A stretch of DNA of 64,000 nucleotides from a bacterium. Its GTDB lineage: Bacteria; UBA8248. Below, piece after piece: positions 2,327 to 51,848 of this stretch. The notes under the pieces are model-generated. The model saw nothing but the letters and a program-made list of their open reading frames with translations. It was not told the DNA's origin and searched no databases. Numbering within the stretch: the first letter of the stretch is position 1; each line of letters begins with the position of its first letter. The position numbers were made by a program, and so were the translations under genes. The stretch spans positions 2,880,001 through 2,944,000 of the forward strand of contig OZ241875.1 in the NCBI GenBank assembly GCA_965203325.1, in the 5' to 3' direction.

Positions 2327-3034
2327 TTGAACGGCAAGACGAAAATCCTGTGGACGGCGGGGCTGTGCCTGCTGGCGGCGGCCTTGCTCGCCTACCTCTT
2401 CTGGGGGCAGATAGACGACGCCTGGGCGTACCTGGTGAAGCTCCAGGACAAGAAAGAGCGGTTCAGGGACTGGATTTGCTCCTTCGGCCCCTGGGGGCCG
2501 GCCGTGTTCATCGGCGTACAGGTGCTCCAGGTGGTCTTCTCCCCCATACCGGGCGAGTTGACGGGTTTTCTGGGCGGCTACGTCTACGGCGCGCTCACAG
2601 CGACGATCCTGAGCACCATCGGCCTGACGATAGGCAGTTTCCTCGCGTTCTATATCGGGCGGAAGCTCGGGCGTCCCTTCGTGGAAAAACTCATACCGCC
2701 CAAAATTCTGGATAAATTCGACTTCCTCATCACGAACAGGGGCGCGTTTCTCGCCTTCGTCTTCTTCTCGATTCCCGGCTTCCCCAAGGACTACATGTGC
2801 TACCTCCTGGGTCTGAGTCCGCTCAGGACGCTGACGTTCGTGATCATCGCGTGTCTCGGCAGAATCCCCGGCACCATCATGCTGGGGGTCCAGGGGGCGG
2901 GGATGTACGAGGAGCAATACGGCCTGGTGGTCGCGCTTCTCATCGTCGCCGTGGTGGCCGGGGCGGCGGCGGTCTACTTCCAGGAGCCTCTGAGAGAATG
3001 GCTCAAGGAAAAGGCCGGCCGGGGTGAGACGTAA
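2327..3034 (+). CDS. TVP38/TMEM64 (DedA/VTT) family membrane protein
   Basis: QVVFSPIPGE, GSFLAFYIGRKLGR, IPGFPKDYMCYLLGLS; hydrophobic pattern. Confidence 0.88.
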   Translation: MNGKTKILWTAGLCLLAAALLAYLFWGQIDDAWAYLVKLQDKKERFRDWICSFGPWGPAVFIGVQVLQVVFSPIPGELTGFLGGYVYGALTATILSTIGLTIGSFLAFYIGRKLGRPFVEKLIPPKILDKFDFLITNRGAFLAFVFFSIPGFPKDYMCYLLGLSPLRTLTFVIIACLGRIPGTIMLGVQGAGMYEEQYGLVVALLIVAVVAGAAAVYFQEPLREWLKEKAGRGET

Positions 3035-3123
3035 GACGAATCAAGGGCGGCCACACACCGAATCACGTAATCAGGAATTTTCCACAACCCCCATTGGCCG
3101 CAATTCGGCGGCAATCCCGGCCC

Positions 3124-4008
3124 TTATGAAACTCCCAGATAGAGCAGAAGCAGGGGTATGGTGACAAGGCTCAGCGCCGTGCCCGTGAACACGATGGAGG
3201 CGGCCAGCGACCCCTCATCCCCGTAGCGTTCGGCGAAGATGTAGTTCAGCACGGCGGGCGGGCTGCACGACATCAGGAAGAGCGCCGCGCGGAACGCGCC
3301 CGTGAGCGCGAAGGCTTCCGAAAGCACCCATGCCAGCACGAAGCCGAGCCCGAACCGGAGCGCCGCCACCAGGAGGCTGATTCTGAAATCCGACGCCCGG
3401 ATGGAGCGGAGCCTATAGCCCAGCGTGAAGAGCTCCACCGGGAACATCCCGCGTCCGGTCAGATGCGAGAAGCGCAGGATGAACTTGGGCACGGGAATCG
3501 CCGCCATCGCCACTACGATGCCCAAAATCGCCGCGTAAAGGGCGGGCATTTTGAGGGGCTCCCTGACGCTCGCGCCGCCGCCGTAGGCCATGATCCCCAG
3601 GGTGAAGGAGATAAAGACGTTCGGTATGGAGAGCAGCACCACGTACGCCAGACCCTCCTCGCCGAAGGCCAGAAGCGCCAGGGGATAAGGCAGCGAGACG
3701 GAGTTCATGAGCATCACGCTGGGCACGAAGGGGCGTTGCGTCATGCCCGCCCAGCGTTTGACGGCCAAGGCGACGGCGCCCGGAATGATATGAATCAGCG
3801 TCGAGATGACGCCCGTCTGGATCAACTCCTCCCACATAATACGCTGCCGCGCCAAGGCGTCGAACATCACGGCGGGAGCGAGGAGGAACAGGACGAGTTC
3901 GGCCAGTACCTTGGGGTCGAGCTTTTTCCACCGGCCGTAGAGGAAGCCGACCCCGATCACGGCCATGACCGGGAAGACGATGTTCAAAAGCGGCAATACG
4001 GAAGACAT
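3124..4008 (-). CDS. AEC (auxin efflux carrier) family transporter
   Basis: About 10 TM segments, NSVSLPYPLA and PPAVLNYIFAERY motifs; start placed at MSSVLPLL. Confidence 0.85.
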   Translation of the reverse strand: MSSVLPLLNIVFPVMAVIGVGFLYGRWKKLDPKVLAELVLFLLAPAVMFDALARQRIMWEELIQTGVISTLIHIIPGAVALAVKRWAGMTQRPFVPSVMLMNSVSLPYPLALLAFGEEGLAYVVLLSIPNVFISFTLGIMAYGGGASVREPLKMPALYAAILGIVVAMAAIPVPKFILRFSHLTGRGMFPVELFTLGYRLRSIRASDFRISLLVAALRFGLGFVLAWVLSEAFALTGAFRAALFLMSCSPPAVLNYIFAERYGDEGSLAASIVFTGTALSLVTIPLLLLYLGVS

Positions 4009-4215: not shown

Positions 4216-4653
4216 ATGCCGAAAGTCGATCATCTGGGCTACGCCGTGAGCAATCTCGATGAGAAGAAAAACGTGATGGAGGATTTGCTGGGCTTCCAGT
4301 TTCTGGAGAGAAGGGTGTATGAGCGGCCCGGCAACACCGCTCGCCTCGATTTCTACGAGGCCGAAGACGCGGTGATGGAACTCGTGGAGATGAGCGACCC
4401 CGAGGCACCGCTCAACCGGTTCATCGCCTCACGCGGCGAGGGACTGCACCATATCTGTTTCGTCGTCGATGACCTGAGGGCCACGATGGCCGAATGGGAG
4501 GCGAAGGGAGTCGAGTTCGTCCTCGCCCCCACCTACGGCTCGCGCGGCGGGGTCATCACCTTCACGAACGCGGCGACCACGGGCGGCCTCGCGGTGGAAC
4601 TGGTGCAGTACGTCCCCGAAGGAGAGGAGGTTCCTGACTGGGCGCAGAAGTAA
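4216..4653 (+). CDS. VOC-family protein, methylmalonyl-CoA epimerase-like
   Basis: DHLGYAV...ELVE...GEGLHHICFVVDD...GGLAVELVQ metal-binding pattern; GGAG upstream. Confidence 0.82.
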   Translation: MPKVDHLGYAVSNLDEKKNVMEDLLGFQFLERRVYERPGNTARLDFYEAEDAVMELVEMSDPEAPLNRFIASRGEGLHHICFVVDDLRATMAEWEAKGVEFVLAPTYGSRGGVITFTNAATTGGLAVELVQYVPEGEEVPDWAQK

Positions 4654-4838
4654 GGAAGCGCCATTCGCATAACCCGCACCACGCGCCCGGCTTGCCTGCA
4701 AGTAGAGAAAAGACGTGCTCGCGGTGCGGGTATGCGGCCTGCCGGGGGAGAAGGGATTATATGTACCTTCTTATACTTTGGATGACGCGGGGTTGATGAA
4801 AGAATTCGCCAAGTCCGAACGAAAGCCTCATTTTTCGC

Positions 4839-4867
4839 TTGACAAGCAAGGTCCAATCCCCCACTAT
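4839..4867 (+). promoter_or_regulatory. Putative sigma70 promoter of the candidate ncRNA
   Basis: TTGACA (4839-4844), 17-nt spacer, CACTAT (4862-4867); predicted start near G4875, the first base of the 16-bp helix. Confidence 0.5.
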
Positions 4868-4874
4868 TTCACCC

Positions 4875-5391
4875 GGCATACAATCCACGTGTGGTCGATC
4901 TCACGGGCTGCCCGCTGAATACAAGACGACTCTTCCTGAGAGTTGAAATAGGCGGGAACCCACATTTCTTCCAAAACGTGGATTGTATGCCAACCAGCCC
5001 GTATTTCATCCGTGGGTTCGGGTGAATCAATCCGCGTGTGGATTGGGAAGGATTGTATGGGTCGAGCTAGTTCATGATGAACATACCTATCTAAACCATA
5101 TAAAGGCGGCTTTTTCAGGAAACTGATGACAGGGATGCACTATAGCGAAAAATGACTGGTTGGTCAAATAGGGAAGCCGGTTGCCGCGTCGTAGGTGAAG
5201 AAGCGGTGCCGGTTTCTAGCGGCGGCCGGAAAGGGCGATGGGGCGGGTTTCAAAAGCGCCTCCGGAGCTCAGGCAAGAAGATGAAGAATTTGGGGGTTAC
5301 TCATTAGCTGCTTGACCTCGTGGAGTAGCGAGTACCGTTCCGGGTTCGAGTTGGGTCCTCAGACCCGCAACGGGAATAATGAGTAACCCCC
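4875..5391 (+). ncRNA. Candidate large structured non-coding RNA (~520 nt), class unassigned
   Basis: No ORF of 60 aa or more within 4919-5378 in any frame; perfect helices 4875-4890/4976-4991 and 5292-5306/5377-5391; 8-bp pseudoknot-type pairings; GAAA tetraloop hairpin; pyrimidine tail. Confidence 0.65.
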
Positions 5392-5631
5392 TCCTTCTTT
5401 CATCGATGCGTACTCGAAAGCAGATTCCAATACGAGCGACTTTCGCGCCGGCTCCCCGGGTCGGGGGCGAGCATCCCCATTATAGTCTCATCTTGTCGCC
5501 GATTGCGAGTTTTTTCCCGAACGCGGGTTTCGCTCCTCGGCGCCGGCCGCTTCCGGGGTACACGGCGAGGGGCCTGTTTTCGGTTTTCGTGCGGCCCGCC
5601 GAGGGGGGAGGGCTGCATTCCGAGAGGGTGC

Positions 5632-5640
5632 TGGTATAAT
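5632..5640 (+). promoter_or_regulatory. Extended -10 promoter (TGnTATAAT) for the DUF5678-like/retropepsin pair
   Basis: TGGTATAAT about 70 nt upstream of ATG 5707; GGAGG precedes the ATG. Confidence 0.55.
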
Positions 5641-5706
5641 GAATTTTGCTCTCTTCCGTGTTTTTGGCTAACCGGCTGAATTCGCGATTTGTTCGGGAGG
5701 CTCGCC

Positions 5707-5952
5707 ATGGAAAATGGATTGAACGATGAATTTGAATACTATTTGGAAAACCAGCTCGATCTCACCGAGAAGTATGAAGGCAGATATATCGTAATCAAAA
5801 ATCGCAATGTGATCGGAGACTACGATACCAAGAGAGCTGCAATCGAAATGACGATGAAAATGCATATGTTGGGCACTTTTCTGGTGCAGAAATGTAGCAG
5901 TGACCCCAACAGCATAAAAAAAAGGTTTCTGTCGCGGGCCTATTTTTCGTAA
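5707..5952 (+). CDS. Small DUF5678-like protein
   Basis: EFEYYLENQLDLTEKYEGRYIVIKNRNVIGDYD pattern; its stop overlaps the next ATG (TAATG). Confidence 0.7.
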   Translation: MENGLNDEFEYYLENQLDLTEKYEGRYIVIKNRNVIGDYDTKRAAIEMTMKMHMLGTFLVQKCSSDPNSIKKRFLSRAYFS

Positions 5953-6415
5953 TGTTCAAAAAGAAAAGTTCTGCTTTCACGACATATTGCCGAGGATATG
6001 AAAACGTCCTTTCCAATCTGGTCGAGGTCGCGCCTGCTTATGACCCCGAGTTAGGTTTCTCCAGGTCTTTTTCAGGAAATACAGAGCGGTTTCGGATACA
6101 GGCGCCACGCACAGCGCGATAACGTCGCAAGTGGTTCGGGATTTCGCCTTGCGAGCTACTGGCATGGCCGTCGTTTATGACGCCACCACTACGCAAAATG
6201 TCCATACGTATTCAGTCAATATCTTATTACCCAACCATGTTGAGTTTTCCGATTGGGAAGTGACCGAGGCGGGTGGACTTGTTGGCGATGAAGACATCCT
6301 GATTGGTATGGATATTATCGGGGCCGGTGATTTCGCGGTTAGCAATAAAGAACGAACGGTATTCACCTTTCGCTATCCTTCACAAGAAGAGATCAGTTTT
6401 TCCAAGCAAGGCTAA
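5952..6415 (+). pseudogene. Retropepsin-like (clan AA) aspartic protease, split by a -1 frameshift
   Basis: The ATG 5952 frame stops at 6120-6122; the -1 frame carries DTGATHSAIT (6095) and ILIGMDII; T5 run at 6068-6072 is a likely site. Confidence 0.75.

Positions 6416-51772: not shown

Positions 51773-51848
<76 letters not shown>

Follow-up and report, generated by a model that had tools for sequence, protein, structure and literature searches.

Positions 4839–5401 of a 64,000-nt stretch of bacterial DNA (the window; GenBank assembly GCA_965203325.1, contig OZ241875.1, lineage UBA8248) are best read as the shell of a surface-lipoprotein transcription unit from which the coding sequence has been deleted. 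We give this reading, in which the transcript is predicted from sequence, a probability of about three in four. The stretch is modular, with a conserved promoter and a folded leader RNA (H1) at one end and a branched terminator-like RNA (H2) at the other. What the sequences show directly is its modular anatomy, the homology of each module, the deletion, covariation in both H1 and H2, and a conservation exceeding that of synonymous sites. A first-pass annotation of the same DNA had proposed a single large noncoding RNA (ncRNA) in the size class of OLE, ROOL, and GOLLD. The unit reads instead as an mRNA minus its coding part, since its ends belong to separate families, the copy number of H2 varies, relatives have a variable middle or none, and a lipoprotein gene lies between the ends in two of them.

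Results

A Lipoprotein Gene Is Deleted Between Conserved Ends

The region was matched in 23 of 61 related genomes, the window's own genome (G000) included, and in 18/22 within the genus. Sixteen syntenic loci share a common order of glyoxalase gene, promoter, H1, a leader segment (mid1), a variable middle, and H2 in one to three tandem copies, with a DUF5678-like gene after H2 in the 9 of 16 loci that reach that far. Identity to the window is 90–98% for the promoter plus H1 and 83–100% for H2, and 72–95% at third codon positions of the glyoxalase gene. The variable middle (mid2) is 25–62% alignable in nine of the 16 relatives and not at all in the other seven.

A single relative (G005, locus L019) has an intact open reading frame (ORF) between mid1 and the first H2. 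It encodes 289 amino acids with a lipobox-like VAGC, a poly-Gly linker, and the C-terminal end ...GAGFEGAFGAHKRK. The protein scores below the Pfam cut-offs for FHBP_C (22.2 bits vs. 28.1) and TbpB_B_D (18.7 bits vs. 26); two of three lipoproteins tested exceeded the TbpB_B_D cut-off (31.6 and 27.0 bits). In a second relative (G003, locus L020), the lipoprotein gene between mid1 and H2 is full-length and frame-split (259 + 62 amino acids), owing either to ongoing decay or to a misassembly. The other 15 of the 17 sequences, window included, have no ORF of more than 100 amino acids in this interval.

Remnants of both edges of the gene remain in the window. Positions 5098–5206 align with L020 positions 33–141, within the 5′ untranslated region (UTR) of the gene (E = 2e-7), and positions 5210–5297 align with L020 932–1021, covering the last codons and the start of H2 (E = 4e-9). 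Likewise, positions 5237–5300 align with L019 958–1021 (E = 3e-8), the same place at which the 289-amino acid ORF ends in L019. Translated in frame, 5237–5284 yields DGAGFKSASGAQARR-stop, which is the end of the gene in decayed form. The joint left by the deletion is at ~5206–5210, with ~790 nt absent from the window. Other species carry different, smaller deletions; at L012, a 33-codon stump joins the signal-peptide region to the C-terminus. Where H2 occurs in tandem, each copy is preceded by ~50 nt of gene end. Among the four sets of DNA contigs examined (X1–X4), X1 and X4 have the gene-less stretch in one contig each, identical to that of the window in X1 and with 26 differences in X4, and X2 and X3 carry it in pieces; these contigs demonstrate that the gene-less form exists as DNA, and nothing further.

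Excess Structure Is Confined to the Two Ends

The first-pass annotation had noted that 4919–5378 contains no ORF of at least 60 amino acids, which was borne out (the longest are of 53, 51, 47, and 44 amino acids), and had described the DNA as dense with complementarity. The 526 nt from 4875 fold at –209.5 kcal/mol (z = –5.29 on the plus strand and –5.07 on the minus strand, relative to shuffles). In piecewise folding of the plus strand, the excess was found only in H1 (4875–5001, z = –6.88) and in 5284–5400, which holds H2 (z = –6.70), whereas the middle was ordinary (5002–5105, z = –1.47, with 18/200 shuffles equally good; 5106–5236, z = –1.91). A DNA search of the 4.39-Mb genome found paralogs of the H1 and H2 modules only.

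At the gathering score, the 4,227 models of Rfam 15 gave no match in 4600–5750; the sole match in the window was a tRNA at 51773–51845. At E ≤ 10, the same interval gave three chance-level matches, to M23 (20.5 bits vs. 41.2), mir-2818, and isrK, and the models for OLE, ROOL, GOLLD, HEARO, and raiA gave none.

H1 Is a Covarying, Probable Leader RNA Behind Its Own Promoter

Between TTGACA and the 3′ end of H1, hardly any position differs among the 17 sequences. Both promoter hexamers are kept in the window and its 16 syntenic relatives (one has CAGTAT), with a spacer that varies, and nearly all full H1 copies elsewhere have TTGACA, 17–18 nt, and nAnTAT immediately before the 5′ arm.

Alignment A1 (n = 28) combines the window, three syntenic relatives, three paralogs from the window's own genome, and 21 paralogs from relatives. 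Across the long helix, the pseudoknot, P2, and P3, 93.5% of cells pair and 14 of 32 pairs are changed on both sides, a covariation that none of 500 shuffles reached; slid controls paired at 25–40%. These controls, and those for H2 below, consist of shuffling and sliding and ignore phylogeny. In the long helix, 7 of the 14 aligned pairs are compensated, for example GGCAUAC/GUAUGCC vs. GCGACAC/GUGUCGC. The helices of H1, an element of ~127 nt, contain frequent G-U pairs, which fit only the plus strand, and the H1 model (R1) matched H1 solely on that strand.

R1 found 15 matches in the window's own genome, comprising seven full copies and eight without a promoter, the latter at the right end of a 1.9-kb repeat. 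Copies in this genome precede lipoprotein or secreted-protein genes at genome positions 3273049, 1446221, 254568, and 621375 and a sugar transferase gene at 1457404. Of the 19 paralog loci examined in relatives, seven have a sugar transferase as the next gene on the same strand, six a GC-GGGG lipoprotein, one an autotransporter, and two an integrase; one further locus has a lipoprotein gene 2.2 kb away, and two are unclear. These classes were mostly assigned by reading ORF translations, with Pfam confirming Bac_transf, Autotransporter, and Phage_integrase in one example each. Most copies lie between their own promoter and a co-oriented gene. Alternative pairings exist, without covariation. At 1446221, 254568, L131, L135, and L138, the element ends 15–40 nt before the Shine–Dalgarno (SD) sequence or ATG.

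A scan of 185,579 species' genomes with an H1 pattern returned 45 loci. The taxon-labelled ones are mostly Nitrospinota or Nitrospinaceae, and many are labelled only "bacterium," including contigs of the genus relatives already compared. Outside the phylum, with labels taken from the sequence records, R1 scored 61–79 bits in metagenome-assembled genomes (MAGs) labelled Terriglobia, Defluviicoccus, and Paracoccaceae and in an unclassified MAG (L096), with the long helix again compensated; a pattern locus labelled Clostridia had no R1 match. In the Defluviicoccus-labelled MAG, H1 ends 15–40 nt before the SD or ATG of genes for lipobox, poly-Gly lipoproteins with GAFGAKRQ-type ends, one of which exceeds the Pfam TbpB_B_D cut-off. 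In the other three MAGs, it precedes genes for other membrane or secreted proteins and for DNA methylases. To judge from these neighborhoods, members of the predicted H1 family stand before genes for surface lipoproteins, autotransporters, sugar transferases, and mobile elements, in Nitrospinota and in three or more lineages besides.

Several further observations concern the copies themselves. Second H1 copies, tandem or partial, stand before the same gene at L043, L058, and L025 (~2990–3090, minus strand), recalling the tandem sRNA-Xcc1 of Xylella. The 1.9-kb repeat (G000 3371471–3373367; L024 272–2168) has about 8–10 further copies and carries an HTH_17 ORF (L024 930–1649, minus strand) and a GC-rich hairpin after the Xcc1-like element; its left ~550 nt recur upstream of several lipoprotein paralogs. 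We considered the repeat as a source of TnpB omega-RNA and rejected this, as HTH_17 was the only ORF that Pfam recognized and no transposase was found. A likeness to tRNA or tmRNA, raised by 77-nt nhmmer matches, was also dropped: ARAGORN found neither at any H1 or H2 locus, and the matches are the promoter-less H1 copies.

H2 Is a Three-Way Junction That Follows Lipoprotein Genes

In alignment A2 (n = 38 H2 copies), 93.4% of the cells in helices P1–P4 pair, 15 of the 33 base pairs are changed on both sides, and none of 500 shuffles reached the covariation score; a measure of further pair types was not above shuffles (338/500). The GGGGG/CCCCC base of P1 is invariant or nearly so. Sense copies scored 55–143 bits with the H2 model (R2). 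At this locus the sense strand scored 143 bits vs. 35 for the antisense strand, the strongest reverse-strand match, with those elsewhere at 20–30 bits.

The window's own genome has 12 sense copies of H2, of which 11 are located 12–118 nt past the stop codon of a LAGC-lipobox lipoprotein gene (280–1068 amino acids); the twelfth is the orphan in the window. Among 51 genomes of the phylum, H2 is present in 16 of 22 from the genus and in none of the 19 from the family's other genera; one weak match, at 41 bits, comes from a different family within the class. The four H1-bearing genomes of other lineages gave no H2 match. Eight metagenome contigs contain H2, five copies following lipoprotein-like C-termini and three being of the gene-less syntenic form. 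The H2 family is uncatalogued and almost confined to this genus.

After P1, 30 of the 38 copies have at least five T in the first 10 bases (pooled, 54% T and 86% pyrimidines). H2 appears to be laid out like an intrinsic terminator that bears a conserved three-way junction where the simple loop would be; a simple terminator scan did not list it. An integron attC site was also considered for H2 and dropped, the order of its arms being unlike that of attC core sites. Ten consecutive nucleotides of the P2 loop (5313–5323) recur in the 3′ arm of a second H1 subtype (L025 ~3290–3300, minus strand), so the loop is complementary to that subtype's 5′ arm; the match could reflect a 5′–3′ contact or common origin.

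Several details of the first-pass annotation carry over to these two modules. The promoter, the perfect 16-bp helix, and the closing helix that it described (the last at 5284–5306/5377–5399) are all present, and its remark that G-U pairs favor the plus strand agrees with the strand scores of both modules. Of the nested pseudoknots that it proposed, the one formed by the outer helix of H1 is retained and the others are unsupported. Its coding-free unit with promoter and terminator stands as a promoter-to-terminator-like unit in which both ends are structured plus-strand RNAs. Homologs with covariation were found for H1 and H2.

The Middle Holds a Mini-ORF and a Putative Antisense Promoter

Two conserved features of the middle are absent from the first-pass annotation. 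The six-codon mini-ORF in mid1 keeps its length in 15 of the 17 sequences (two codons in one, longer in one), with third-position variation in codons 4–5. Positions 5050–5059, at its start, repeat the 3′ arm of H1 and are thus complementary over 10 nt to 4877–4886, so that the H1 5′ arm can pair with either. Within the remnant of the 5′ UTR, a putative antisense promoter of the form TTGACN-17/18-TAnAnT is present in all 17 syntenic sequences, with varying spacers (11/12 consensus positions in L019), and faces the H1 promoter across ~260 nt. A palindrome, TGAC-N-GTCA, overlaps its –35 hexamer, and the half-sites co-change between lineages (TGACC/GGTCA, CTGAAC/GTTCAG).

Features and Neighborhood

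Feature coordinates are given in Table 1. The stretch lies in a gap of ~1 kb, with a glyoxalase/VOC gene on its 5′ side and a small DUF5678-like gene on its 3′ side. The latter is followed by a 94-amino acid ORF without a Pfam match, and the pair (5689–6415) is kept with the locus in relatives. A ~150-nt repeat (query positions 5751–5990) has ~100 copies in G000 and is dense near the lipoprotein paralogs.

Table 1. Features of the gene-less unit and its neighbors, in window coordinates
Feature	Position	Strand	Basis or remark
Glyoxalase/VOC gene	4216–4653	+	Pfam Glyoxalase_4, E = 3e-18
Sigma-70-type promoter	TTGACA 4839–4844, 17-nt spacer, CACTAT 4862–4867	+	Sequence, conservation; predicted start ~G4875
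H1, Xcc1-like structured leader RNA	4875–5001	+	Covariation, fold z, model R1
H1 long helix, perfect 16 bp	4875–4890/4976–4991	+	Complementarity, covariation
H1 pseudoknot or outer helix	4904–4910/4995–5001	+	96% of cells pair; 1/7 pairs changed on both sides
H1 P2	4911–4915/4952–4956	+	
H1 conserved internal loop	4916–4926	+	
H1 P3	4927–4932/4940–4945	+	5/6 pairs changed on both sides
Leader segment mid1	5002–5105	+	Syntenic locus only, no paralogs; fold unexceptional
mid1 hairpin CAATCC/GGATTG	5028–5045	+	
SD-like run	5045–5052	+	
Six-codon mini-ORF MGRASS*	5057–5077	+	
5′ UTR remnant of lost lipoprotein gene	5106–5206	+	Aligns upstream of gene in G003 and G005
Conserved antisense promoter	TTGACC 5167–5162, 17-nt spacer, TATAGT 5144–5139	–	Consensus scan 10/12
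Last 16 codons of deleted lipoprotein gene	5237–5284, stop 5282–5284	+	Alignment to L019/L020
A-rich run before H2	5276–5291	+	
H2, three-way-junction 3′ element	5292–5391	+	Covariation, fold z, model R2
H2 P1	5292–5305/5378–5391	+	4/14 pairs changed on both sides
H2 P2	5307–5312/5324–5329	+	
H2 P3	5335–5344/5364–5373	+	6/10 pairs changed on both sides
H2 P4	5348–5350/5358–5360	+	
Pyrimidine/T-rich tail	5392–5401	+	Directly after G/C-rich H2 base
DUF5678-like small gene	5689–5952	+	Pfam E = 6e-4, under Pfam cut-off

Discussion

Proposed Mechanism

Read as the shell of a lipoprotein unit, the stretch would be transcribed from the sigma-70 promoter, with RNA starting near 4875. The first 127 nt (H1) would form an sRNA-Xcc1-like leader of the kind placed between its own promoter and exported- or surface-protein genes. 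The leader segment with the SD-like run and mini-ORF would come next, then the 5′ UTR stump, bearing a promoter aimed back at H1, and then the final 16 codons of the lost gene. The RNA would end in H2, with its A-rich run, G/C-rich base, and U-rich tail, an element that in this genus stands after the stops of paralogous lipoprotein genes. H1 may be a two-shape leader whose 5′ arm pairs either with its own 3′ arm or with the repeat of that sequence where the mini-ORF begins, and such a switch of partners would gate downstream expression. H2 would terminate and protect the transcript as an elaborated intrinsic terminator, and the antisense promoter may damp the unit through convergent transcription or RNA pairing. 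Since H1 and H2 are more conserved than the synonymous sites of the neighboring gene, the unit may still function without its coding sequence (CDS).

Several points weigh against this interpretation. A consensus promoter scan missed the H1 promoter because its –10 hexamer is weak. A local hairpin competing with the long helix of H1 pairs in 91% of cells and shows no compensatory change, and when the 5′ arm of H1 pairs instead with the start of the mini-ORF, four relatives have an uncompensated mismatch (GGATCG). The tail of H2 is no plain U run, branched terminators are unusual, and a short hairpin followed by T6 at 5496–5516, ~100 nt past H2 and inside the chance-level isrK match, could be a second, simple terminator. 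A search of sequencing runs for the stretch returned DNA contigs only and no RNA run. Finally, where no gene intervenes between leader and H2, a purely cis role leaves the conservation of H1 and H2 in 15–16 gene-less genomes unexplained.

Alternative Readings

That last point bears most directly on the idea, which we consider rather unlikely, that the CDS-less unit is a working RNA gene, either a trans-acting RNA like Xcc1 or a decoy for a factor that binds the leaders of the paralogs. Only one of 17 sequences has the gene intact, whereas every one retains the promoter, H1, the mini-ORF, the antisense promoter, and H2, with H1 and H2 conserved above the synonymous-site level in genomes that lack the gene. 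This conservation could also reflect constraints at the DNA level or recent loss, and because the middle decays and varies, selection would act at most on modules and not on a 520-nt whole. sRNA-Xcc1 is reportedly called trans-acting in the title of Chen et al. 2011. The founder RNA of Xanthomonas was mapped as a free 88-nt RNA (PMC2996969). Only tentatively can the unit be seen as an mRNA turned regulatory RNA, in which a ~520-nt CDS-less transcript under purifying selection would act in trans on paralogous surface-protein genes, with the antisense promoter controlling it.

The antisense promoter might also itself make the functional product, a minus-strand RNA driven from 5167–5139 and antisense to mid1 and H1. 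This is improbable. The promoter is nearer to consensus than that of H1 and is universal at the syntenic locus, and the H1 minus strand also folds well (z = –4.52). On that strand, however, the G-U pairs of H1 become A-C mismatches, R1 gave no minus-strand match to H1, and no convergent promoter was found in the own-genome paralog inspected (L025).

We consider it very improbable that H1 and H2 are DNA-level elements, such as miniature inverted-repeat transposable elements (MITEs), repetitive extragenic palindromic (REP)-like repeats, or recombination flanks between lipoprotein cassettes, with the RNA folds as by-products. Both modules are multi-copy with palindromic ends, tandem H2 copies each bring a piece of gene end, several different deletions removed the gene between conserved flanks, and promoter-less H1 sits at the end of a repeat. 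Nevertheless, H2 is tied to one gene family, one strand, and a near-fixed distance in 11 of 12 copies, and its flanks show no target-site duplication by eye, contrary to the dispersed, duplication-flanked copies expected of a MITE or REP element. G-U pairs and strand-asymmetric model scores indicate RNA, full H1 copies have their own promoter, and viral contigs contained no match to either the H1 or the H2 pattern.

A single integrated ncRNA of ~520 nt, representing a new class on a par with OLE, ROOL, and GOLLD, for which an ORF-free stretch bracketed by a promoter and a terminator-like end, an overall z of –5.3, and the lack of an Rfam match could be cited, is largely refuted and keeps a slim residual chance: the excess structure is confined to the two ends, these are separate families found apart elsewhere in the genome, and in relatives the middle varies, is duplicated, or has a gene in its place, its stems in the first-pass annotation (TGTATGG/CCATATA, CGGCTTTT/GGAAGCCG, TCAG-GAAA-CTGA) existing here and changing without compensation in relatives (by eye).

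Significance

The claim of a new giant ncRNA class thus shrinks to a smaller object that is still undescribed in Rfam. H1 would be a long variant of the poorly understood sRNA-Xcc1 that works close to the promoter as the leader of genes for surface-exposed proteins and mobile elements across several phyla, and H2 a branched, terminator-like 3′ RNA tied to one TbpB-type surface-lipoprotein family. Together they suggest that in uncultured Nitrospinota a large and rapidly evolving repertoire of surface proteins is controlled through common RNA modules at both ends of the message. Having lost its protein part and kept its RNA parts, the locus is a natural experiment that offers a handle on what the modules do alone.

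Comparison with Known Systems

The core of H1 follows the same plan as sRNA-Xcc1 (RF02221, 88 nt, Xanthomonas campestris), in which an outer helix (4904–4910/4995–5001 in H1) encloses a hairpin with an internal loop, AAUACAAnAC/GAAAUA, and a second short hairpin follows. Xcc1-type helices pair in 91–96% of cells in A1, and the promoter-less paralog L024 aligns to positions 1–87 of the sRNA-Xcc1 model, loop included. Like sRNA-Xcc1, H1 has its own promoter and precedes a gene in the same orientation; for sRNA-Xcc1 in the integron cassettes of Xanthomonas, that gene is symE (bioRxiv 10.1101/2025.06.18.660453). Both are multi-copy, and tandem copies occur (H1 at L043 and L058; five of sRNA-Xcc1 in Xylella, PMC12189769). 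Unlike members of that family, the best H1 paralogs in the genome score 29.2, 28.8, 27.6, and 21.1 bits vs. a threshold of 53, and the window copy gives no match at E ≤ 10, so that H1 is at most a distant, longer relative and not a member. At ~127 nt, H1 adds to the 88-nt plan a helix of 14–16 bp in which a 5′ extension pairs with the 3′ half of hairpin two, turning the outer helix into a pseudoknot. The RNA ends of sRNA-Xcc1 have been mapped in Xanthomonas (PMC2996969).

H2 resembles intrinsic terminators and 3′-stabilizing stem-loops in its A-rich run, G/C-rich base, U-rich tail, position after a stop codon, and tandem copies. In contrast to theirs, its stem carries a conserved ~70-nt three-way junction whose arms covary and whose loops are conserved, and its tail is mixed pyrimidine rather than a clean U run. 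Correia, ERIC, and REP/BIME elements are transcribed hairpin repeats found after genes. Like these, H2 is multi-copy, ~100 nt long, with inverted-repeat ends, located downstream of genes, and probably cotranscribed with them; unlike them, it is bound to one gene family and orientation, with no target duplication or random insertion sites seen.

Literature searches linking Nitrospinota, sponge, and noncoding RNA found no match, and among the matches listed for surface lipoproteins and Slam none tied a structured RNA to the genes or mentioned a "leader RNA." The protein of the syntenic G005 locus, scoring below the Pfam cut-offs, differs in this from the Slam-dependent TbpB/fHbp lipoproteins, a surface-lipoprotein family described in PMC5449769. 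The genes flanked by H1 and H2 share with that family the lipobox, the poly-Gly linker, and a barrel at the C-terminus with the end motif G-x-F-G-A-x-K-Q.

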